A stretch of 64,000 bases of DNA from an uncultured Candidatus Saccharibacteria bacterium (GTDB taxonomy: Bacteria > Patescibacteriota > Minisyncoccia > Phycocordibacterales > DATDWN01). The stretch is from the NCBI GenBank assembly GCA_964597675.1, contig CAZQYV010000001.1, positions 81,644-145,643 of the forward strand, in the 5' to 3' direction. Under the pieces are notes generated by a model that worked only from the letters and a program-made list of their open reading frames with translations, was not told the DNA's origin and searched no databases. The first letter of the stretch is position 1, and every line of letters begins with the position of its first letter. Of the stretch, positions 8,370 through 61,636 are shown in pieces. The position numbers and the translations under genes were made by a program.

Positions 8370-8449
8370 TAAAATTATTTTATGCTTTACTCCAATTTAT
8401 ATTTGTAAAAAAACCTCTTATCCTTCGTTTCATTCAGGATCTAGCAGTT

Positions 8450-12475: not shown

Positions 12476-12648
12476 AAATAAACTAAAATTTTTAATACAA
12501 AAACACCACACCCTCTGTGTGGTGTTTTTGTTATCCCCACTTTTACTCCTCCTTCCTCCCACACCAATCATTTTCTCTGTTACAATATATCTAACACAAC
12601 AGGTGTTATTGTTTTTCATTATCATATTATTCGCATTTAACTATCACC

Positions 12649-15600
12649 ATGTCTCTATTCAATCGTATTCGTACCCTATTATTAATCTGTGCTCTCATCT
12701 TTGCAGGGAGTGTTGCACTGCACACCATACACGCACAGTCATCTGGCTACACACCAGTGTCAGTCAACTCTCCCACCAACACCTCACTCAAAGTGACAGC
12801 AACACCTCTAGAGTTAAACAACACCACAAACATGTGGTCCTACAAGATAGACTGGAAGAGAACACGTAATGCACAAGGTTCTATATCTATTGCAGAAGAG
12901 TCATCTCCTACAACTAAAGTCCTCTCACTCTCTCCTGCATCACAAGAGGGAAGTCAGACTGTCACACTCAAACCCTCTACTACATACAGAGTGAAGTTCT
13001 ACAGTACAACGGGATATGGTGGAACACTCATCTTGAGCAAAAAGATGACAACTCTCGCTACATCTGATGAGGATCCTGACCTAGAGGACGATGTGGTGAA
13101 TACAGATACTTCTATCACAGGTCTTCAAACGCAGATTGCATCTCTCCTTGCACAGATCAATGAACTCCGAGCACGATTAGCGGGGGGGACACCTGTGACT
13201 ACTAGCACCAGTTCAAGTCCTGCTGTTGTGACTACAACAGTATCTACAGGCACTGGGAGTTATGATCCTGCGGTGGATAACAGATCAACCAACACATTTT
13301 ACATTGCACCTAAGTCACAGGTAAAAACAGGTAGCAAACCTGCCTATTTCTTTGTGCGTATCGGTAAATATGGAAGTCAGAGCAGTGCTATATCAGAATT
13401 TAAAAATGTACCAAAAGGTATGAATGTCACTTTCTATAGGTTAGATAAAGATAGGATTGACCCTTCATGGTATTCAGGAGAGAAATTACCGGTTGATCAA
13501 TATTCATATACAGGAACTAGTTTTCCAATATTTGCGTATCTTAAATCAGTCCAACCATACCCATTGGCAAAATGGCTTGGGACGTATCAGCGTTGGTTAA
13601 AACCTGATGAAAATATGGCCAGAAGCCAATTTGGCGGACCTAATATTATTAACGACGGCACAGCTATTCTTAGGTCTGGAGAAATGGGGCTGTTAAAAGT
13701 TGATACAGATACAGATTTTACGGCTGGACCTGGGACATATACTATTACAGCAGTCGAGAGTACTAATCAAGGTTCAGATATTGCGGGACAATATAATTCA
13801 TCGGCTACGAAAAAAGAAGTAACATTTAGTGTTGTAATCGGTGATCAGGTGGCAATGTGTCTCAGTGATTTAAAGACGTGGCCAAGTCCAACAGCAAAAA
13901 ATTCTAAAACACTTCCTGATGCATTTAAACTATCTGGCGATCCTGGAAGATTTAATGATGCCTGTGATCCAAGTATTGGCGCAAATGCTTCAGGATTTCC
14001 AAATTTTACTGACAGAAAGAAGCCGTTATTGCAGGATTGTGTTACTAAAGCACAAAAACAAGCAGATGCTCTCGGTGTTCCCATGTCTTGTTCTATCATT
14101 ACAGAGGCAAGTGGTGGTTATTTCCGAGCTGGCTGTATAATCACTGGTACTGGCTATGAATTTCAAGCAGCACAATTGGTTGGAACAGGACAAGTTGGTA
14201 CAAATCAGCAGTATTCTCAGGGTAGTTGGAGAGATGTAGAGAGGACAATTCTTCAAAGACAAGCAGAAAAAGTGGCTGATCGTGGATATGTATATTATGA
14301 TAACGACTCAAATGTTTGGCGAGCAATGAATCAGACTGTAGCAGACGCACCAGCATCTTGTGATAAGTTGCTCGATGTTGATGTTAAAAGCGTTAATAAA
14401 GAATGGAATATTTCCATTCATGCTAAGTCACTGACAGAAGGTTCTGTTATTCCAATCGAAATTGTTGCACACCCATCGGTTAAATCAGTTAGTCTATATC
14501 TGCTTAAAGATTATACGAATGGTTCGAACGCAAGAGAGTGGTGGAATGATGAGTATGCCAAACTTTCATCAGCAACTTCTTGGAGTTCATGGATTGGTGA
14601 GAAAAATGCAGCTCAATCACCACAAAGAAATTTAATTGGATATCCAGAATATCATCCACAGGTTGCGTTGACTATGCAGAGAGTCAACTTGGTAAATGGT
14701 AAGGGTACAATACAGTGGACTGTTCCTTCTAAGCTTGAGCCATATCAAGAAATGGGCTGGAACCAAGGAGGACAAGGCGGTTTGCAGCCAGCCGTTCAAT
14801 ATAGTATTAGAGCGATAGCAGACAATAGTATATGGTCTGATAGTCCTAGTTTTACTATATTATCTAATACTCAATCATGTAACTTACTCGAGGGTACAGC
14901 ATGTGATTCATCAAAGGTTACTGAGTCTGTGCAGTCCGGTTCATCTGGAGGTTATGCATTATGGGTAAATGGCCGCGATTTGTATAGGTCTTTCGGTGTA
15001 ATGGGTCAAGGAGTTGCTCCTCTAGATGTTCGAATTACAACTGCTGATGCAACATATAAAACTGGAGATCCTCATCCAAGTAGTTCTGTTCCACTTCCTG
15101 TTCCAGTAACGGCAGGCAAACCAATTCAGATTTCAGGATACATGTTTAATAATTCGACCAAAAAAGTTGATATTGATCTGTTAAATATTGGCACCCCTCT
15201 GTGTCAAAGCAGTGTCAACCAAGCGTATCAAGTGTTCCATGCTTGTGAGCAAGAATATTATTCAAAACCAATAGTGACATGGTCAATTGCTCGGGATATA
15301 CCATCACGCATTATAACTGATTCATTAGGATATAATACATGGTTCTTTAATCACATCTTTACAGTACCATCTGATGCGATTGTTCCCGGTAAATACGTCA
15401 TTCGCATAACCGATCCTGATTTCTTGTATAGTTATGCTGGACAGGAGAGAGGAACAGCTATATTTGGATTTCAGGGTGGTGTAGCATTTAGTCCATCATT
15501 TGAGGTGATCGGTTCATCACAGCCTGCTACAGGACAGACGCCAACTCCGACAACACCTTCAACACCAACTAGCGCAACACCAGTTTCTAATGCTTCAGGT

Positions 15601-15941: not shown

Positions 15942-16330
15942 TGATATAATACACCAATGAACATATCAAAATATCTTAGTACCCCTTTACTCATCCTCAC
16001 CATCCTTCTTACTACACTCTGGAGTGTACACACCCTACACGCACAGTCATCTGGCTACACACCAGTGTCAGTCAACTCTCCCACCAACACCTCACTCAAA
16101 GTGACAGCAACACCTCTAGAGTTAAACAACACCACAAACATGTGGTCCTACAAGATAGACTGGAAGAGAACACGTAATGCACAAGGTTCTATATCTATTG
16201 CAGAAGAGTCATCTCCTACAACCAAAGTCCTCTCACTCTCTCCTGCATCACAAGAGGGTACACAGACTGTCACACTGAAACCTTCTACTACATACCGAGT
16301 GAAGTTTTATAGTACAACGGGGTATGGAGG
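15942..16330 (+). repeat. about 390 bp segment (promoter, signal peptide, N-terminal module) nearly identical to 18770..19158; a 220 bp core is also shared with 12731..12950
   Basis: Direct nucleotide comparison shows only a couple of mismatches over hundreds of bases. Confidence 0.8.
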
Positions 16331-18722: not shown

Positions 18723-18784
18723 TAGTACTAAAATTTTTGTTTAGATGGATATTGTAGGATGTGTTTATGTGTTATAATACACCA

Positions 18785-20173
18785 ATGAACATATCAAAAT
18801 ATCTTAGTACCCCTTTACTCATCCTCACCATCCTTCTTACTACACTCTGGAGTGTACACACCCTACACGCACAGTCATCTGGCTACACACCAGTGTCAGT
18901 CAACTCTCCCACCAACACCTCACTCAAAGTGACAGCAACACCTCTAGAGTTAAACAACACCACAAACATGTGGTCCTACAAGATAGACTGGAAGAGAACA
19001 CGTAATGCACAAGGTTCTATATCTATTGCAGAAGAGTCATCTCCTACAACCAAAGTCCTCTCACTCTCTCCTGCATCACAAGAGGGTACACAGACAGTCA
19101 CACTGAAACCTTCTACTACATACAGAGTGAAGTTTTATAGTACACCAAACTACACAGGCACTGCTATTTTGAGTAGGAGAATGACAACACTTTCAATATA
19201 TGATGAAGAGCCAGATGTTGAAAATATCATACCCCCTGTTTCCATGGATTCAAGTATAACTAATCTTCAGTCACGTATCTCTGAATTGTTACGTATGATA
19301 GAACAATTACGAGGACAAATTGGTCGCAGTGTATCTTCGTCTTCTACCGCAACAAGTACAGCCACTACAACAAATCCTCTAATTTCACTTCCGCAACAAC
19401 CTGTAGCATGCACCATGGAGGCACGCCTGTGCCCAGATGGTATTACATATGTAGGACGAACCGGCCCGCAGTGTGAATTTGGAGCATGTCCTGTAAAAAA
19501 ATGTGATACTGGATTACTCTACATGCCATCATGTTCTGGCGTACCTGTTCAAAATCCAAACACATGTGAAATAACGTGTCAGTCTAGTGCACAGTCAGCA
19601 CGAGTAACAATTACAACAAACTATAGCGAGCCACTTCTTTTGGGTTCATATAGTAATTTGTCATTTCAGGTATCATTGCCACAAAATGTAAATCCAAATC
19701 CTGACTATACATTCAAGTTAGTCGGTAGTATTCCTGGTATGATTTTTGAAAATATGTGGTGTGACCAAGTGGGTTATGGAGGAATCTGTCCTAAAATGGT
19801 AAGTGTATCAAGTGTCATGTATCTTGACGGCAGACCAACTCAAGTGGGAATATATCCCATTACTCTTGTTGCCACAGATCAATATGGTAATACAGGATCA
19901 AAAACTATAAACATAGAAGTGGTTAGTTTGAAACCGTTACCACTTATTACTCAATGTCTCTATGCTGCACCACCAGATGGTTGTAGTTATATTCCCGGAC
20001 CGAATTATAATCCTCAGACAACATGCGGTATGATTCTTTCCTGTAATGCAGAGACAGCATGTCAAAATGTTGAAGTGGGTGTAATGCGAACTTGCTTGAC
20101 AGGATATGTTTCAAAATTAAATCCAAAAACGTGTATATATGAGTGTGCACCTGTTGGTAGCAGTTCAGAATAG
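18785..20173 (+). CDS. secreted protein, paralog C (463 aa): same N-terminal module and Cys module, with a Cys-rich C-terminal region
   Basis: Start at MNISKYL, identical to paralog B including the upstream tataatacacca; the ORF track starts 24 nt earlier at 18761. Confidence 0.7.
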   Translation: MNISKYLSTPLLILTILLTTLWSVHTLHAQSSGYTPVSVNSPTNTSLKVTATPLELNNTTNMWSYKIDWKRTRNAQGSISIAEESSPTTKVLSLSPASQEGTQTVTLKPSTTYRVKFYSTPNYTGTAILSRRMTTLSIYDEEPDVENIIPPVSMDSSITNLQSRISELLRMIEQLRGQIGRSVSSSSTATSTATTTNPLISLPQQPVACTMEARLCPDGITYVGRTGPQCEFGACPVKKCDTGLLYMPSCSGVPVQNPNTCEITCQSSAQSARVTITTNYSEPLLLGSYSNLSFQVSLPQNVNPNPDYTFKLVGSIPGMIFENMWCDQVGYGGICPKMVSVSSVMYLDGRPTQVGIYPITLVATDQYGNTGSKTINIEVVSLKPLPLITQCLYAAPPDGCSYIPGPNYNPQTTCGMILSCNAETACQNVEVGVMRTCLTGYVSKLNPKTCIYECAPVGSSSE

Positions 20174-25875: not shown

Positions 25876-27075
25876 ATGGCAGCAGATTTTGATCGATCAA
25901 AGCCACACGTTAACGTTGGAACAATTGGCCACGTTGACCACGGCAAGACAACTTTAACAGCAGCAATTTTGAATGTACTTGGCCGAGCAGGCGAAGGATA
26001 TTCTTCAAAGGTAAAGGGTGTTGACCAAATTGACTCAGCTCCTGAAGAAAAGGCACGAGGAATTACTATCGCCCTTTCTCACAACGAGTATGCCACACCA
26101 TCTCGTCACTATGCACACGTGGACGCACCAGGTCACGCTGACTACATCAAAAACATGATTACAGGTGCTGCCCAAATGGACGGTGCTATTCTCGTGGTAG
26201 CAGCTACAGACGGCGTTATGCCACAAACTCGAGAGCACGTTCTTCTTGCAAAGCAAGTGGGTGTGCCAAAGATGATCGTATTTTTGAACAAATGCGACAT
26301 GGTACCAGATCTTGAATTGATTGATTTGGTTGAAGAGGAGGTACGTGAGCTTCTTACAAAACAAGGTTTTGATGGTGCAGGTGCACCAGTTATCCGTGGA
26401 TCAGCCCTAAAGGCACTTGAATCAGCAGATAACAACGACGAATGGGCAAAGAAAGTTTTGGATCTTGCAAATGCACTCGATACATATTTCCCAGTTCCAG
26501 AGCGAGATTTGGACAAGCCATTCCTTATGCCAGTTGAAGACATTTTCTCTATTGAAGGCCGAGGTACAGTGGTTACTGGTCGTATCGAACGAGGTATTGT
26601 CAAAGTTGGTGAAGAAATCGAGTGTATTGGTTTGAAAGACACTATGAAATACACTGTGACTGGTATTGAAATGTTCAACAAGTCACTTTCAGAAGGTCAG
26701 GCCGGAGACAACGCGGGTATTTTGCTCCGCGGTGCCAAGAAAGAAGATATTCACCGAGGTCAGGTCTTGGCAAAGCCAAAGACAGTGACTCCACATACAG
26801 AATTTACAGCTGAAGTTTACATCTTGAAGAAAGAAGAGGGTGGACGACATACTCCATTCTTCTCTGGATACAAGCCACAATTTTACATCCGAACAACAGA
26901 CGTAACAGGAGATGTGACATTGAATGAAGGTGTCGAGATGGTTATGCCAGGAGACACAGTTACATTCAAGGTCAAGCTTGTTGCTCCAGTTGCGCTCGAG
27001 GAAAACCAGCGATTTGCTATTCGAGAGGGTGGCAAGACAGTGGGTGCGGGAGTTGTAACCAAAATCGTCGCATAA
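25876..27075 (+). CDS. tuf: elongation factor Tu
   Basis: [18 protein letters not shown] and NKCD motifs; 399 aa. Confidence 0.95.
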
Positions 27076-27211: not shown

Positions 27212-27592
27212 ATGACAACAAAAGAAGCCACAAAAAAGGTTGTAACGAAAAAAGTCGCATCAAAGACGGCCGGAAAGTCCGACGTGATTTCTAAGTTGCG
27301 CATTCGTGTTCGGGCATACGAGTACAAGATCCTTGATCTGTCTGTAAAGCAGATCATTGATACTGCGCTCCGTTATGACGCTAAAATTGAAGGTCCTATA
27401 CCTCTACCAACAGAAATAAAGAAATATACTGTCAACCGATCATCATTTGTTTACAAAAATGCTCGAGAACAGTTCGAGATGCGTACTCACAAGCGAGTGA
27501 TTGATATATTGAATCCAAGTCCAAAAATCATGGAGGCACTGACGAATATGTCGTTACCTTCAGGAGTCAATATTGACGTGAAGATTATATAG
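27212..27592 (+). CDS. rpsJ: 30S ribosomal protein S10 with a Lys-rich N-terminal extension
   Basis: S10 core IRIRVRAYEYKILD...NIDVKI preceded by about 25 extra residues. Confidence 0.9.
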   Translation: MTTKEATKKVVTKKVASKTAGKSDVISKLRIRVRAYEYKILDLSVKQIIDTALRYDAKIEGPIPLPTEIKKYTVNRSSFVYKNAREQFEMRTHKRVIDILNPSPKIMEALTNMSLPSGVNIDVKII

Positions 27593-27635
27593 CGATACGA
27601 AGTAACGAATGGGTTACGAATTGCTACGAATAAAC

Positions 27636-27672
27636 AAAAAACCGCCCTGAGCTTGTCGAAGGGGCGGTTTTT
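27636..27672. terminator. rho-independent terminator after rpsJ (bidirectional)
   Basis: aaaaaccgccctgagcttgtcgaaggggcggtttttt. Confidence 0.7.
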
Positions 27673-27686
27673 TGTGGAGACATTAG

Positions 27687-27938
27687 TTACTCTGTTGTCT
27701 CTCGTAATCTACTATCAACATCATCTATCATTCTTTGAATCATTTGTTGTTCTCTTTGTACATCGGCTATTTCTCTTTTACCTTGCTCAGCAATGTCCAA
27801 GTCTGCACCGTACCTGGTTCTTATCGAATTCTCTTTGTTTATTAAAGCTTGAAGTTGATTTTCATACTTTGATCTTTCATCAAAAAGAACACTTCTTTCT
27901 GGTGTTTCAAAACTCATGTTTCCTGATTCCATTCCCAT
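27687..27938 (-). CDS. small coiled-coil hypothetical protein (83 aa)
   Basis: ORF convergent on the rpsJ terminator; charged, helical composition. Confidence 0.3.
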   Translation of the reverse strand: MGMESGNMSFETPERSVLFDERSKYENQLQALINKENSIRTRYGADLDIAEQGKREIADVQREQQMIQRMIDDVDSRLRETTE

Positions 27939-28040
27939 ATTTTTAAATTAGTTACTAATACTCATAATTATAGTGGGTGAGGGGAGGCAGGTCAATTATT
28001 CTTGTACTGTTAGACACCGAGTGTCTAACAGTATGGACAC

Positions 28041-28512
28041 TCTATTAGAATATCAAAAATTCTTATCCCTCGCTTTGCTCGGGATCTGCAAATTCTCATG
28101 CTTCGGACTACCTCAGCATCCGGAATTTTCATAGTCGGCGCCTTTGGCGCCTCGTTGAAAATTCGGACTTGACAAATGGGTGGGGGATAGATTATACTGG
28201 TACCAGTGGATGGGTAGAGGGGTCTGGAGGTAAGGTGTTGGCTCAGCCACCCTCCTCCAGACCGCCTGGTCCTCTCACTGTTCTTTCGTTTCTTGTCTGA
28301 TACTTTTGTATCAGATACCAGTCGCAGTCTCTCTTCGGAGGGGCTGTTGTTTTTTTTGTAATTTTTTCTTATCCCTCACTACGTTCGGATATTTGAAATT
28401 CTTATACTTCGGATTACCTCATCATCCGGAAATTCTTATCCATCGCTTCGCTCAGGATCCGGAATTTTCATAGTCGGCACCTTTGGCTCCTCGTTGAAAA
28501 TTCGGACTTGAA
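28041..28512. repeat. repeat-rich non-coding spacer: two copies of a 55 nt imperfect-hairpin unit (28122-28175, 28458-28512) plus tandem 30-35 nt sub-repeats, and a central hairpin cluster ending in a T-run (28210-28340)
   Basis: ccggaattttcatagtcggcgcctttggcgcctcgttgaaaattcggacttga occurs twice; aaattcttatcc...gatc-like units occur three or more times. Confidence 0.6.
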
Positions 28513-28605
28513 ATAAAAAAGGATATCTGCTAGTATAGCCACATTGCGTATTAGAGGCCTTCCCGCCTCTTTGTCGTTCAAAACATTTATATACAATTTC
28601 GTATT

Positions 28606-29220
28606 ATGAAATACCTTCTCGGAACAAAACAAAATATGACCCAAATCTTTGATGATGCGGGTGTCGTACATCCAGTGACTGTCATCAAGACAAGTCCTTT
28701 GGTTGTGACACAGGTCAAAAATGTTGAAAAGGACGGCTATACTGCAGTTCAAGTCGGATACGGTACTCGCCGAGCAAAAAACATAAACAAACCAGAAACT
28801 GGTCAAATGAAAGGTGGTTCATATGCACATCTCAAAGAGTTTCGAGTTGAAGGTGCTCCTACATTTGCTATCGGAGACACCATTGATCTTTCTACATTTT
28901 CTGCAGGGGACACAGTTACCGTTTCATCTATTTCAAAAGGAAAGGGCTTTCAAGGTGTGGTCAAGCGACATGGATTCCACGGTGGCCCCCGATCACACGG
29001 ACAAAAGCATTCAGAACGAGAGCCAGGTTCTATTGGAGGTGCAGGCCGTGATGGAGGACGTGTTGCCAAGGGCAAGCGTATGGCAGGCCGTATGGGAAGT
29101 GACCGCATCACTACAAAAAACCTTACTATTGTTGCAATTAACCCAGAGAACCAAGAAATATTTATTCGAGGAGCAATTGCAGGCCGACGAGGAACGTTAG
29201 TCGAGATCAATGCCGAGTAA
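28606..29220 (+). CDS. rplC: 50S ribosomal protein L3
   Basis: L3 family sequence. Confidence 0.95.
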   Translation: MKYLLGTKQNMTQIFDDAGVVHPVTVIKTSPLVVTQVKNVEKDGYTAVQVGYGTRRAKNINKPETGQMKGGSYAHLKEFRVEGAPTFAIGDTIDLSTFSAGDTVTVSSISKGKGFQGVVKRHGFHGGPRSHGQKHSEREPGSIGGAGRDGGRVAKGKRMAGRMGSDRITTKNLTIVAINPENQEIFIRGAIAGRRGTLVEINAE

Positions 29221-29314
29221 AAATTGAAAAATCAAAATGGAAAATTACAAGACAAAGTCAGAAAATATTAATTAAAATTTTTACTTTTGATTTTTCAATT
29301 TTACATTTAATACC
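29221..29314. repeat. about 90 nt palindromic intergenic repeat element with a perfect 17 bp terminal inverted repeat (aaattgaaaaatcaaaa / ttttgatttttcaattt), MITE-like
   Basis: Related copies at 35276-35377 and 44616-44706. Confidence 0.65.
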
Positions 29315-30076
29315 ATGGAAACAACAACAGCAAAAAAGAATACAAAAGCAGTCAAGGAGCCAAAAGTAAAAGAGGCCATCTCTTTGGATGCAGTTGTTTA
29401 TTCTGACAAAGGCAAGGAGTCTGGTACGATTGCTCTTCCTTCTCACATATTTGGTCTTCCATGGAATGGTGACTTGGTACACCAAGTCGTAACATCAATG
29501 ATGTCTACGGCTCGTACACCTGTTGCCCATACCAAAAATCGCGGAGAAGTTTCTGGTGGTGGTAAAAAGCCATGGCAACAAAAGGGAACTGGTCGTGCAC
29601 GACACGGATCAAATCGATCACCGATCTGGGTTGGTGGAGGTGTTACTCATGGTCCACGAAATGACAAAAATTTTGACCGAAAGGTAAACAAGAAAATGAA
29701 GGCCAAGGCACTTTACACTATTTTGTCTGCAAAATATAAAAAAGGCCAAATTCTCTTTGTTGATGACATGAATCTTGCAAACGCAAAGACAAAAGAGGCA
29801 AAAGTAACACTTTCAGCATTTTCAAAAATTACAGGGTACACAGATATACTTTCAAAAAAGAAAAATTCTGCTTACATTGCGCTCCCTACAAAAAATGTTG
29901 CTGTAGAGCGTGGATTTAGTAACTTCGGTAATCTCGAGGTAGATGAAATTCGAAATATGAATCCACTCGATATTATGCAGTATAAATATTTGGTTATTGC
30001 AAATCCAAAAGTTGGACTATCTCAGGTTGATGCAAAATTGGGTGCAAAAAAAGTAGCCACAACATCTAAAAAATAA
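29315..30076 (+). CDS. rplD: 50S ribosomal protein L4
   Basis: GGGKKPWQQKGTGRAR motif. Confidence 0.95.
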   Translation: METTTAKKNTKAVKEPKVKEAISLDAVVYSDKGKESGTIALPSHIFGLPWNGDLVHQVVTSMMSTARTPVAHTKNRGEVSGGGKKPWQQKGTGRARHGSNRSPIWVGGGVTHGPRNDKNFDRKVNKKMKAKALYTILSAKYKKGQILFVDDMNLANAKTKEAKVTLSAFSKITGYTDILSKKKNSAYIALPTKNVAVERGFSNFGNLEVDEIRNMNPLDIMQYKYLVIANPKVGLSQVDAKLGAKKVATTSKK

Positions 30077-31276: not shown

Positions 31277-31305
31277 TTGACAAATAATCAATAATAGTAT
31301 ATACT
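31277..31305 (+). promoter_or_regulatory. sigma70-like promoter (TTGACA, 17 nt spacer, TATACT)
   Basis: ttgacaaataatcaataatagtatatact. Confidence 0.55.
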
Positions 31306-31311
31306 TATATA

Positions 31312-31626
31312 CAGGTGTTTTGAGTAGTCAAACATTCCGCCCTCCGAGTAAGGAGGCGGTTGCCGGAAAGACCACACCGGCGAAAAATGTGGTGACTCTC
31401 GGATATCGTATGAATATCCGAGTTGCACAAAGCCCTGTGCGTAAAATAAGGTGACTCTTTTTAATGGAGAGAGAATGTTGTGAATAAATTGCGTCATTAA
31501 ATAATAACCCTCACCCCGACGCAGGTGAGGTAGCGGTATCTGGGCCTCGAAATCTAGATACAACGTCCGGTCGTGTAAATACATCTGGACACCTTGGCCC
31601 GACATCTGTCCGGGCCTTTTTCTTTG
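31312..31626 (+). ncRNA. unclassified structured ncRNA of about 315 nt with its own promoter and terminator
   Basis: No ORF; at least 6 hairpins including a 9 bp stem ctcggatat/atatccgag, an H-type pseudoknot candidate (gccgg..CCACA..ccggc..TGTGG), and a terminal hairpin ggcccgacatctgtccgggcc plus T-run. Confidence 0.45.
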
Positions 31627-32812: not shown

Positions 32813-33253
32813 ATGGCAACAGCACACGCAACACTTTCAAACTTCCGACAATCACCACGCAAAATGCGCGTGGTTGCAAATCTTGTACGTGGCAAAAAAG
32901 TGTTGGATGCACTCACAAGTCTAGAGTTTACAGACAAGCGAGCATCAGGCCCGATCAAGACACTTATTGCAAGTGCTTTGGCAAATGCAAAGTCTCTGGA
33001 TATTCCAACAGAACATTTGATTATAAAAACAATCGAAGTCAATTCTGGTAAGATTATGTACCGACGTATTCCTGCTGCTCGGGGAAGTGCACATCCGATC
33101 CGCAAGCGAACATCACTTGTTCGTGTCGAGTTGGGCGAGGCAACAACAACAAAGAAGGTGAAAATTGCAAAAGAAAAGGCAATTGCCGCACCTAAAACAG
33201 AGACAAAGGCAAAGAAACCAGCTGTAAAAAAAGTAGCAAAGAAATCAGATTAA
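32813..33253 (+). CDS. rplV: 50S ribosomal protein L22
   Basis: L22 family. Confidence 0.9.
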   Translation: MATAHATLSNFRQSPRKMRVVANLVRGKKVLDALTSLEFTDKRASGPIKTLIASALANAKSLDIPTEHLIIKTIEVNSGKIMYRRIPAARGSAHPIRKRTSLVRVELGEATTTKKVKIAKEKAIAAPKTETKAKKPAVKKVAKKSD

Positions 33254-33289
33254 TTTTTCATTTCGATTTTTTAATTTTAAATTTTATTT

Positions 33290-35275: not shown

Positions 35276-35377
35276 GAAAGTAAAATATTAAAAATCAAAA
35301 TGGAAAATTACCAGATAAAGTCAAAGAATACTAATTAGAATTTTTACTTTTGATTTTTCAATTTTAAATTTATTACC
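35276..35377. repeat. second copy of the about 90 nt palindromic intergenic element (about 85% identical to 29221-29314)
   Basis: aaaaatcaaaatggaaaattac...tttttacttttgatttttcaattttaaattta. Confidence 0.65.
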
Positions 35378-35593
35378 ATGCATATCAAAAAAGACGACAA
35401 AGTAAAAATACTGTCAGGAAAAGATAAGGGCAAAACTGGCTCGGTGGTTAAGTCATTTCCAAAAGAAAACAAAGTCATTGTTTCAGGTGTCAATGTAGTA
35501 AAGGCACACAAAAAAGCTCGCAAGAGTGGCGAAAAAGGTCAGATTATAGACAAGACAATGCCTATCCACGCATCGAATGTAAAGAAAGTGTAA
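35378..35593 (+). CDS. rplX: 50S ribosomal protein L24
   Basis: KOW motif, 71 aa. Confidence 0.9.
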   Translation: MHIKKDDKVKILSGKDKGKTGSVVKSFPKENKVIVSGVNVVKAHKKARKSGEKGQIIDKTMPIHASNVKKV

Positions 35594-44027: not shown

Positions 44028-44615
44028 ATGTCTCCTCATACATTTGTGTTTATCGGACGTTCTGGTTGTGGTAAAGGTACTCAGGCGGGTTTGCTCATGC
44101 AGCAGATTGGAGAGAAGAAAGTCGGTGAACCAATTTTTTATCTTGAAACAGGTCAGAAATTTCGCGATTTTATTGGAGGCGCTGGATACACAAACACTCT
44201 CGCACGCACCATCCAAGAAGCCGGAGGACTCCAGCCATCTTTTTTGGCGGTTTGGATGTGGTCAAATATCTTTATTGACAAATTGACTGATAAGGATCAT
44301 TTGGTTATTGATGGTACTCCACGCAAACTTGGTGAGGCAATTATTTTCACCGAAGCAATGAAGTTTTACAATCGAAGACCGATTGTTATATATATCAATG
44401 TATCTCGTGAGTGGTCAGAGGCACGGCTATCAGATCGGCATCGGTCTGACGATATGAGTGAAGTCATAAAAAATCGCCTTGATTGGTTTGACACGGATGT
44501 CTTTCCGGCGGTAGAGTACTTCAAGACAAACCCCGATGTCCAGTTTCTCGATATAAACGGTGAACGAGCGATTGAGGAGATTCAGGATGATATTTTAGAA
44601 AAATTAAAAATTTAA
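44028..44615 (+). CDS. adk: adenylate kinase
   Basis: P-loop GRSGCGKGTQ; normal position after secY, displaced here by the DGR. Confidence 0.8.
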   Translation: MSPHTFVFIGRSGCGKGTQAGLLMQQIGEKKVGEPIFYLETGQKFRDFIGGAGYTNTLARTIQEAGGLQPSFLAVWMWSNIFIDKLTDKDHLVIDGTPRKLGEAIIFTEAMKFYNRRPIVIYINVSREWSEARLSDRHRSDDMSEVIKNRLDWFDTDVFPAVEYFKTNPDVQFLDINGERAIEEIQDDILEKLKI

Positions 44616-44706
44616 AAATCAAAAAGGAAAATTAATATACATTTTTACTTTTTACTTTTGATTTTTCATTTTTAAATTGGTGAAAATCTAGGTTAAATGA
44701 TTATCT
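44616..44706. repeat. third, more diverged copy of the palindromic intergenic element
   Basis: aaaaatcaaaaaggaaaattaat...ttttacttttgatttttcatttttaaatt. Confidence 0.5.
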
Positions 44707-50758: not shown

Positions 50759-50852
50759 CAAAGAACTCCTTTCCTAACTCTCGGTTCACCAATTTCCTCT
50801 AGGATGTTATTTACAATTGTATTATACACCCAAATCACTTTCTTGTCAACCA

Positions 50853-50920
50853 TTTTTCGAGTACAAAAAAGTCCTATTTCTAGGTGAAATTTGGGGGTAG
50901 TGGTGGCAGTTCGGCCTTCG
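50853..50920 (+). repeat. about 65 nt direct repeat, copy 1; copy 2 is at 51660-51727; the pair flanks the NYN-domain gene
   Basis: tttttcgagtacaaaaaag[t/c]cctatttctaggtg...ggggtagtgg[t/c]ggcagttcg. Confidence 0.6.
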
Positions 50921-51090
50921 CTATCTTGTCGATAAAATAAAAAGTAAAGCCCGCACCGAGTGCGAACTGTATTATTGTGAGCGGGGTATAAAATTTAAGC
51001 ATAAAAATGACGTCGACGGCCTAAATACAAAATACATCCAAATTAAGTATAGTTGTTGTTTAACATGAGCTTTTTGATATTATTATCATA

Positions 51091-51519: not shown

Positions 51520-51775
51520 AAAGAACAAAAGCTAAAATTTATTATTTGAAAGATAAGAAAAATACACTTACATAAAAAAAGACCCCCAATGAAGACGAGC
51601 TTCACAAGGGTTCTTTTCGTAGTGATATTAAAAGTATATCAAACTGTTCGTGAATGTCAAATAAATATTTTTCGAGTACAAAAAAGCCCTATTTCTAGGT
51701 GTTGTTTAGGGGTAGTGGCGGCAGTTCGCCCTTTGCCTTAAAATTTTCTCGTCAGAAAATTTAATATTGTGGGAG

Positions 51776-60699: not shown

Positions 60700-61430
60700 T
60701 TTTGAGTAGGAGAGAGCGAGAATTTTTGCCTCGAAATTTTCAATTTCGTCAAAAGGAGCGAGAGTTTCTCACTCGACTTAAAAATTTCTCGTCAGAAATT
60801 TTTAGTCTGTGCACTGACTCGCGTCCTGCTTTTGCTAAAGCAGGAATCGCTCCGTCGTTCGAATCTCGACACAATCTGCTAACAGCAGATTGTTCTCTCT
60901 CCGTAAACAAAAAGCGCCTTTCGGGATTTTGTTGGCGGAGAGAGCGAGAGTTTCTCCTACAATTTTTTCTCGTCGCCACTCGAAAAAATTCTAGGCGCCA
61001 GATGTGCGACAAACTCTGCTAAGTTTGTAGACCGCACATCTGTTCGAATCTCGCGCGCATAGCTTCGCTTTGCTTCTCTCCGCAAAAAGAAAACCCGTTT
61101 CGGGGTCCTTTTTGCGGAGAGAGCGAGATTCGAACTCGCGGTTCCAATTAAGGAACGACGGTTTAGTAAACCGTTGATTTAAACCACTCATCCATCTCTC
61201 CATATACTCGCTATGCTCGAATGGAGCTGCTTTCGCAGATCGATGGATTCGTGGTCGGTGATTACACCGGCTCGGTGTGAAGTAGTTCACACCATCGCCC
61301 ATCTCATCCATCTCTCTGTATACTCACCTGAACATTAGGAATATAGCATTTTTCTGTGGATTGATAAAGTTTTTTTGCGGAGACGGGGAGAGTTTCTGCC
61401 TCGAAATTTTCAATTCCGTCAAATTGAAAA
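60700..61430. repeat. tRNA-fragment repeat region: three copies of a tRNA 3'-end core (gcggagagagcgaga and gcggagacggggaga classes), each followed by gtttctgcctcgaaattttcaatt[c/t]cgtcaaa-type flanks, plus a partial duplicate of the 5' end of the 61115-61201 tRNA
   Basis: Copies at 60708-60752, 60945-60990, 61377-61424 and 61290-61318. Confidence 0.6.
61115..61201 (-). tRNA. type II (long variable arm) Ser-like tRNA with apparent anticodon ACU
   Basis: Acceptor GGAGAGA/TCTCTCC, G73 discriminator, anticodon stem ACGGT/ACCGT with loop TTACTAA, variable arm GTTCC/GGAAC, T arm GCGAG-TTCGAAT-CTCGC. Confidence 0.55.
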
Positions 61431-61525
61431 TTTCTGGCCACCGGTTTGTCGACAAGCCCTGCTGGGCTAGTAAACCGACAAACCGTTCGAATCTCCCACG
61501 TAAAGCTTCGCTTTACTCGTTCCTG

Positions 61526-61615
61526 CGGAGACGGGGAGATTCGAACTCCCGAGGCCTTTTAAAGGGCCTGCCTCTTTAGCAAAGAGGTACGTTAGACCAC
61601 TCTGACACGTCTCCA
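61526..61615 (-). tRNA. tRNA-Ser (GCU)
   Basis: Acceptor GGAGACG/CGTCTCC, G73, anticodon stem CCTCT/AGAGG with loop TTGCTAA, long variable arm AGGCC/GGCCT, T arm GGGAG-TTCGAAT-CTCCC. Confidence 0.75.
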
Positions 61616-61636
61616 TAATCTTTCTACGGTATCATA

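Follow-up and report, generated by a model that had tools for sequence, protein, structure and literature searches.

A predicted small-RNA gene and a shared promoter-upstream repeat module between rpsJ and rplC in a patescibacterial genome

The strong ribosomal promoters of the rrn type in Escherichia coli combine an UP element, further upstream sites and tandem P1-P2 pairs. [quoted passage not shown] Promoters may also be reused within a genome, and putative mobile promoters have been defined by an upstream stretch of 50-100 nt with at least 80% identity that precedes non-homologous downstream units (Matus-Garcia et al. 2012, PMC3488235). In the S10 operon of E. coli, the leader carries an attenuator that interacts with L4 and at which termination is stimulated by L4 (PMC3616713).

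Here, we describe the interval between rpsJ and rplC in a 64-kb stretch of patescibacterial DNA, the whole of which (64,000 nt) is referred to as the window. Positions are counted from the first letter of the window, promoters were scored in a promoter scan out of 12, and the repeat units are named A to D, with primes for the copies in the second array. The features of the locus are as follows.

25876-27075, plus strand: tuf, upstream of rpsJ.
27212-27592, plus strand: rpsJ.
27634-27675, both strands: bidirectional intrinsic terminator behind rpsJ (plus) and the 83-aa ORF (minus), a perfect inverted repeat of 14 nt between an A-run and a T-run.
27687-27938, minus strand: 83-aa ORF with no assigned function.
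27967-27995, minus strand: promoter-like site of the 83-aa ORF, TTGACC-17-TATAAT, scoring 11/12 and conserved in the sister strain.
28005-28033, no strand: perfect palindrome TACTGTTAGACAC-CGA-GTGTCTAACAGTA, with 13-nt arms and a 3-nt loop; DNA fold z = -6.0.
28057-28168, plus strand: repeat array 1, consisting of A (28057-28089), B (28090-28123), C (28124-28157) and D (28158-28168).
28117-28422, no strand: 306-bp segment with C, D, P1, X, A' and B', present in the window, in contig L082 and partly in contig L220.
28169-28198, plus strand: predicted promoter P1, TTGACA, 18-nt spacer, TATACT, scoring 11/12, with its start predicted near A28205.
About 28205-28356, plus strand: candidate small RNA X, ~152 nt, with three hairpins, the last being the terminator.
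28204-28280, 28294-28317 and 28324-28347, plus strand: hairpins of X, the third being the terminator stem, followed by T8 at 28350-28357.
28363-28507, plus strand: repeat array 2, consisting of A' (28363-28395), B' (28396-28429), A'' (28430-28462), C' (28463-28496) and D' (28497-28507).
28508-28536, plus strand: P2, the predicted rplC-operon promoter (TTGAAA-17-TGnTAGTAT, extended -10), scoring 9/12, with its start predicted near A28543.
28543-28605, plus strand: rplC 5' leader of ~63 nt, with a small hairpin at 28553-28570.
28606-29220, plus strand: rplC (ribosomal protein L3).

Several traits bring this locus close to the rrn type: the sigma-70 hexamers are near consensus, two promoters stand in tandem on one strand, the A/T-rich GAAAATTCGGAC, which ends in C and is invariant across strains and in relatives L001 and L002, adjoins both -35 boxes, and more repeated sites lie upstream. 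Unlike the rrn type, the units here are 33-34-bp direct repeats with internal dyads rather than A/T tracts phased at 10 bp, and the first promoter is cut off from the operon by a terminator. We know of no Fis-like factor in this lineage. The block of 61 nt that precedes both X and rplC, 95% identical between its copies, fits the published definition of promoter reuse (PMC3488235). It differs from mobile promoters, however, in that the family numbers two, in tandem and 339 bp apart, with no sign of movement from elsewhere, and in that the same module serves rpsJ, not rplC, in two other genomes. With the E. coli S10 leader, X shares its length (~150-170 nt of structured RNA), a terminator hairpin with a U-run and a place upstream of rplC-rplD. 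The E. coli leader precedes rpsJ and overlaps its start, whereas X lies downstream of rpsJ and of a terminator; X is furthermore parted from rplC by a full promoter, varies between strains and matches the leader in neither sequence nor structure. In architecture, size and stability, X is like the generic stand-alone small-RNA genes of bacteria, from which it differs in having no family assignment and in being conserved within one species-level clade only.

The initial annotation had placed a 650-bp non-coding spacer between rpsJ and rplC. A non-coding stretch of this kind is real (27939-28605, 667 bp), but its flanks are the 83-aa ORF and rplC, and the rpsJ-rplC gap amounts to 1013 bp, which also holds the bidirectional terminator and the minus-strand ORF. 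In related Patescibacteria the gap ranges from 8 to 3560 bp, wide ones being common, and assorted unrelated small ORFs occupy it in other Paceibacteria. The locus shows the rpsJ-rplC junction to be a hot spot for accessory genes in this group. The genome stands near Candidatus Zambryskibacteria; among species-representative genomes, the closest L3 proteins are 74-76% identical, and the relatives compared here are Zambryskibacteria-like.

The small perfect palindrome that had also been noticed is indeed there, within a few bases of its first placement. Located ~60 bp upstream of the start of the 83-aa ORF, it is identical in the sister strain and occurs as a single copy within the window, and we consider it a candidate operator or activator site. 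The 83-aa protein has one homologue only (80% identity) among 5.8 × 10⁹ proteins. In the relative that carries this homologue, a Fic-domain gene lies across the divergent intergenic region, is transcribed away from the small ORF and sits at the position that the repeat array and rplC have in the window; the contig ends just beyond the Fic gene. Between strains, the body of the 83-aa ORF and its half of the terminator (window 27644-27923) correspond to unrelated sequence in contig L081 of the sister strain (2335-2623), in which a 90-aa ORF without detectable similarity is found in DNA whose flanks are ~94-98% identical. Homology returns with the initial five codons (MG[M/V]ES) and the promoter, and in these alignments the small minus-strand ORF behaves like a cassette that is exchanged while its promoter stays in place. 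No Pfam match was obtained for the 83-aa ORF, the 90-aa ORF or the spurious ORFs of the spacer.

All the repeat features first listed are present, on or within a few bases of the positions given, and are non-random. The tandem units, given as 30-35 nt, are 33-34 nt long with nine unit starts over the two arrays, and the two copies of a 55-nt hairpin unit are part of a 61-nt direct repeat (28112-28172 and 28451-28511, 95% identical), whose 20- and 22-mers are seen exactly twice in 64 kb against 0.00 expected. The 55-nt hairpin corresponds to units C and D, and it occurs twice because P1 and P2 share these units. Together, C and D make up a 50-nt imperfect palindrome at roughly -36 to -86 that adjoins the -35 box. 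Unit D (AAAATTCGGAC) is the part in direct contact with the box, and both arrays end in ...GTTGAAAATTCGGAC, after which the -35 box follows at once. Given the placement of P1 and P2, the repeats stand ahead of the predicted starts of transcription, and only read-through past the terminator of X would yield transcripts that include array 2. The non-compensatory changes reported for the GGCGCC stem of the second copy are likewise present: the stem reads GGCACC...GGCTCC, each of the two changes costs a base pair, and the fold is weaker in copy 2, at -8.3 (z -2.1), than in copy 1, at -15.7 (z -5.4). The interpretation drawn from them, namely a DNA-level repeat rather than an RNA helix, is supported by the position of the units upstream of the predicted starts and by the restriction of the broken stem to one lineage.

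Identity between the arrays is uneven, at 95% for C/D vs C'/D' and 78% for A/B vs A'/B'. The two sets of copies hence differ in apparent age, which suggests a history more complex than a single duplication. Within the 64-kb window, the B and C/D units are confined to the spacer, the 55-nt unit has no copies beyond the two in the spacer, and unit A has a single further, weak copy (68% identity) at 8412-8449. A CRISPR array or a ToxI-type RNA repeat array was considered and rejected, given that the units are contiguous and followed by rplC, with no unique spacers and no toxin gene.

Sites that score at least 11/12 number 10 in the 64 kb, P1 among them, vs 2.2 expected. This ~4.5-fold enrichment suggests that consensus sigma-70 promoters are used in this window. 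Both P1 and P2, as predicted, are of the sigma-70 type, with hexamers near TTGACA/TATAAT and a spacer within 16-18 nt. P1 was seen in the window and L082 only. The 29-nt core of P2 (TTGAAnnAAAAAnnnnTATCTGYTAGTAT) stands before rplC and/or rpsJ in L001, L002, L009 and L086-L094, and in the 5 relatives read (L001, L002, L009, L087, L091) the P2 before rplC sits 3' of the rpsJ terminator. The repeat units extend less far. In L001, whose L3 is 74% identical to that of the window, the rpsJ promoter has units B, C and D fused to its -35 box; in L002 (L3 70% identical), it has units B and D there. Upstream of P2 in L086-L094 (L3 79-83% identical), units A-C are absent, indicating that they are not required for P2 in general. 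As judged from these genomes, the unit module is a clade-restricted upstream part of S10-cluster promoters and not a dispersed repeat. In unit C of L001, the centre is entirely different and the flanks GAATTTTTATAGTCG and AAAAATTCGGACTTGA are retained, suggesting that the conserved parts are the A/T-rich arms, not the GC stem. Furthermore, a ~100-nt hairpin element lies between the module and the active promoter in L001, which argues against a strict distance requirement.

This ~100-nt element is an observation in its own right. It consists of two hairpins (z -10.8), has inverted ends of the CCCxGTAGTAG type and occurs in two copies in L001 (3197-3295 and 7170-7275). Each copy is flanked by TTGA(C), and one is found exactly between the module's CGGACTTGA and the active rpsJ promoter; the element looks like a MITE landing in -35-like sites. 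Elsewhere in the window, a 70-nt repeat (50852-50921 and 51667-51736, 89% identical) lies directly upstream, in the minus sense, of two consensus promoters at 50849(-) and 51660(-), and is another duplicated promoter-upstream module. The 51660(-) promoter is then followed only by a ~60-nt hairpin and T7.

The hairpin cluster ending in a T8 run, which the initial annotation had pointed out, runs from 28204 to 28347 and is called as a terminator. On the plus strand, X folds with an MFE of -71.7 kcal/mol (z = -5.9, 0/200 shuffles folding as well), and the minus strand folds less well (-57.2 kcal/mol). X is also a local GC peak, at 0.57 vs ~0.40 in the flanking DNA. Its terminator is of the intrinsic type, with a 10-bp G+C-rich stem followed by T8. 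X thus combines the predicted promoter, the terminator and the fold more stable than shuffles that mark a stand-alone small RNA, and of the options first put forward, a small-RNA locus suits 28205-28356 best.

X is known in full from one strain (the window and L082 being the same), to which a 33-nt fragment in L220 can be added. Scanned with Rfam 15, the spacer contains no family at gathering score, the best E-value in X being 0.2 and relating to the terminator only. BLAST of X or the whole spacer against phage and plasmid collections gave no match, nhmmer found no homologue of X in related loci totalling ~474 kb, and a covariance model made from the one sequence of X retrieved only X itself and the L220 fragment from 59 sources. 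Scans of viral contigs for the stems of X and for the module yielded two chance matches, of which L085 is an unrelated GC-rich hairpin and L219 falls inside a coding region. A metagenome scan with RAAAATTCGGACTTGAM, an unspecific pattern, returned at least 120 matches; those listed are chance ones, mostly coding (KFGLE-type peptides), and none of those listed is module-like. Within the window, the single-stranded linker of X has no target except X itself. Exact look-ups of tuf, L4 and the 90-aa ORF, made for the upstream half of X in the L220 strain, gave only known contigs.

A different structured RNA precedes rplC in the relatives. The leaders in L001 (3835-3935), L002 (1647-1745), L009 (3885-3965) and L091 (2835-2985) have a common motif, GAC-UAGUGAU-GGGCAAUG ... 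CAUUACUGUCC-GAAAAAU-GUC, in which the apical hairpin varies and some of the pairs are compensatory. This motif has no Rfam family at gathering score and is missing from the window; it is possibly an undescribed ribosomal-protein leader. The idea that X is this conserved leader (the two share a GAUGGGY motif) was rejected by a covariance model and a shuffle test. Model R1, built from these four rplC leaders, did not match X, its best hit in the whole window having E = 0.65, and local alignment scores between X and the relatives' leaders stay within the shuffle range, i.e., at chance level.

Comparing strains is informative about both the segment and its promoters. An exact look-up of the L3 protein led to four contigs (L081, L082, L083 and L084). 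L082 is identical to the window over 3720 nt. The other three, which are independent assemblies, are ~94-98% identical to the window in the aligning blocks and represent a sister strain that has an identical L3 protein, is without exactly 28117-28422 and keeps A-B-A''-C-D-P2 with a perfect GGCGCC stem. The breakpoints of the 306 bp lie inside the 24-nt B/B' direct repeat. These repeats are shorter than the k-mers in the ENA contig names (k141, k127), which makes an assembly collapse unlikely. L220 was reached through a further L3 variant. This contig begins inside X and retains the X terminator, A', B', A'', a perfect C', D' and P2; in the terminator, the stem is kept, the loop reads TTAG instead of TTCG, and T6 replaces T8. 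Over 1434 shared nt, the window and L081 show 33 differences, and L220 differs from the window and L081 by 62 and 61, respectively. Since L220 is the outgroup and keeps the end of X, the comparison polarizes the polymorphism: the long form is ancestral, and the short form, on this evidence, arose when 306 bp were deleted between B and B', which are direct repeats. X was lost in this close strain without visible compensation.

The same contigs speak to constraint. L220 differs from the other two strains at 15% of rplC third codon positions; compared with L081, it shows 0 changes over the 77 nt of C-D-P2. The rplC leader shows 1 change in 66 nt, at which the pair is kept as G-U. By this measure, C, D and P2 are under purifying selection. 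The window lineage carries four unique changes in this 77-nt stretch, two each in the GGCGCC stem and the spacer of P2, compared to about one expected on that branch. Because the changes in the GGCGCC stem are unique to this lineage, they suggest a lineage-specific relaxation or retuning of the promoter-proximal copy and not a property of the unit.

We consider it probable, at a level somewhat above even, that X is a stand-alone, lineage-specific and dispensable small-RNA gene that carries a copy of the upstream module of the rplC-operon promoter. The interval would accordingly be a compound promoter region, not a leader RNA, and its ancestral layout in the species-level clade would consist of two tandem transcription units with a common upstream module. 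In the first, A-B-C-D-P1 would drive the ~152-nt structured X up to the intrinsic terminator, which supposes that P1 fires and that X terminates at T8. In the second, A'-B'-A''-C'-D'-P2 would drive rplC and the rest of the S10 cluster via the 63-nt leader. [quoted passage not shown] Given that X sits on a copy of a ribosomal-protein promoter module, its transcription is probably strong and parallel to that of the ribosomal-protein genes. One lineage has since lost X and one C-D copy by the 306-bp B/B' deletion. A more specific role, in which X is a regulatory RNA of ribosome synthesis, acting as a protein-binding decoy or as a read-through attenuator of rplC and functionally replacing the structured leader of the relatives, strikes us as distinctly unlikely; were it true, the natural 306-bp deletion strain would be a ready-made knockout.

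Set against a stand-alone small-RNA gene, it is unlikely that recombination in a hypervariable intergenic hot spot left this segment as a neutral by-product, with X being captured or scrambled DNA that has no function and P1 being fortuitous or weak. The neighbourhood is plastic enough for this: the adjacent ORF body is swapped between strains with ~94-98% identity in the flanks, a relative has a Fic-domain gene where the window has the repeat array and rplC, unrelated small ORFs fill the rpsJ-rplC gap of other Paceibacteria, and X is dispensable with no relatives found. However, neutrality would have to account for the coincidence of a near-consensus -10 correctly spaced from a copied -35, a strand-asymmetric fold (z = -5.9) and a 3' terminator, the last of which persists at ~4% nucleotide divergence, altered in its loop alone. 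Rather unlikely, too, is a cis-acting leader or attenuator, whereby P1 transcripts would reach rplC only by read-through of T8, with modulation of termination by L4 or another ribosomal protein, and P2 would be basal. X is a multi-hairpin RNA of ~150 nt with a terminator, on the same strand and 250 nt upstream of rplC-rplD; the L4-interacting leader of E. coli works by L4-stimulated termination (PMC3616713), and the different conserved structured rplC leader in the relatives sets a precedent in the clade for regulation there. Against this, the complete conserved promoter P2 separates the terminator from rplC, X is missing from a strain whose L3 protein is identical, Rfam gives no match, the covariance model of the relatives' leaders misses X, and sequence similarity to those leaders is at chance level. 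A regulatory array in the S10 leader, as the initial annotation had suggested, does not fit the locus either, because the units lie upstream of promoters, the locus follows rpsJ, and no known ribosomal-protein leader matches.

Two further readings are highly improbable. X could be the mRNA of a 21-codon peptide that starts at GTG 28235 (MLAQPPSSRPPGPLTVLSFLV) and stops at 28298-28300, with a GGAGG at 28226-28230. This SD-like GGAGG is indeed 4 nt ahead of an in-frame GTG, and in relative L087 the slot is taken by small-peptide genes that have a strong SD, but here a perfect stem of 10 bp buries both the SD and the start codon, no protein family matches, and no gene is called at this place on the Logan contig. 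Moreover, SD-like motifs precede only 4/38 long ORFs of the window, suggesting that SD sequences are rarely used in this genome and that the GGAGG is weak evidence of translation. The units, X or both could also belong to a dispersed, MITE-like mobile family, and a decayed mobile element had been among the first suggestions. In its favour, there is the weak copy of unit A at 8412-8449, and L001 carries its MITE-like two-hairpin element right after CGGACTTGA, with a second copy in the same locus. Yet C/D and B units are found only inside the spacer in the 64 kb, the relatives have their units only fused to S10-cluster -35 boxes, phage and plasmid collections gave no match and viral contigs only chance ones, and the indel shows neither terminal inverted repeats nor a target duplication, its breakpoints being the array's own repeats. 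Within the 64 kb and the relatives compared, the units accordingly do not form the dispersed family without a tie to expression that the initial annotation had named as its refutation.

To our knowledge, almost nothing is known experimentally about promoters and small RNAs in Patescibacteria. The stand-alone small-RNA reading adds modestly to this, in the form of an unclassified small-RNA candidate and a clade-specific promoter module. The locus is made of ordinary parts in a tidy local arrangement, and current understanding is not overturned by it. What it offers is a ribosomal-protein promoter core that recurs across genomes, together with an upstream module under measurable purifying selection. 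Furthermore, the natural presence/absence alleles of X, in strains with an identical L3 and ~94-98% identical flanks, make the proposal testable by metatranscriptomics alone.

Other parts of the window hold features of a similar kind. Between rplB and rpsS, at 31277-31625 on the plus strand, lies a second orphan RNA candidate, which comprises a TTGACA-17-TATACT promoter, a structured length of ~310 nt (MFE -111 kcal/mol, z -4.9) and, at ~31597-31625, a terminator. Neither Rfam nor the relatives compared gave a match to it, and on its 3' side follow a 12/12 promoter (31633), an SD, a small ORF running from 31678 with a GTG start, and a terminator. One family of palindromic repeats, very rich in A and T (AAAATTGAAAAATCAAAA...TTTTGATTTTTCAATTTT), occurs at 29214-29330, 33236-33284, 35277-35393 and 44601-44672, in short spacers between ribosomal-protein genes, e.g., rplC/rplD. 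Upstream of tuf, a 300-nt direct repeat (12634-12933, 15942-16241 and 18770-19069) is found at the starts of three consecutive large ORFs, two copies being 100% identical and the third 83%. At 60700-61620 on the minus strand, two tRNA-Ser genes are followed by repeated fragments resembling tRNA 3' halves and by AT-rich palindromes (GAAATTTTCAATT...AATTGAAAATTTC), and ARAGORN reports the unusual anticodons Ser(ACT) and Ile(TAT) in this region. Finally, many long ORFs of the window have a TAnnnT box 5-12 nt ahead of their start, suggesting that mRNAs without a leader, or with a very short one, are widespread.
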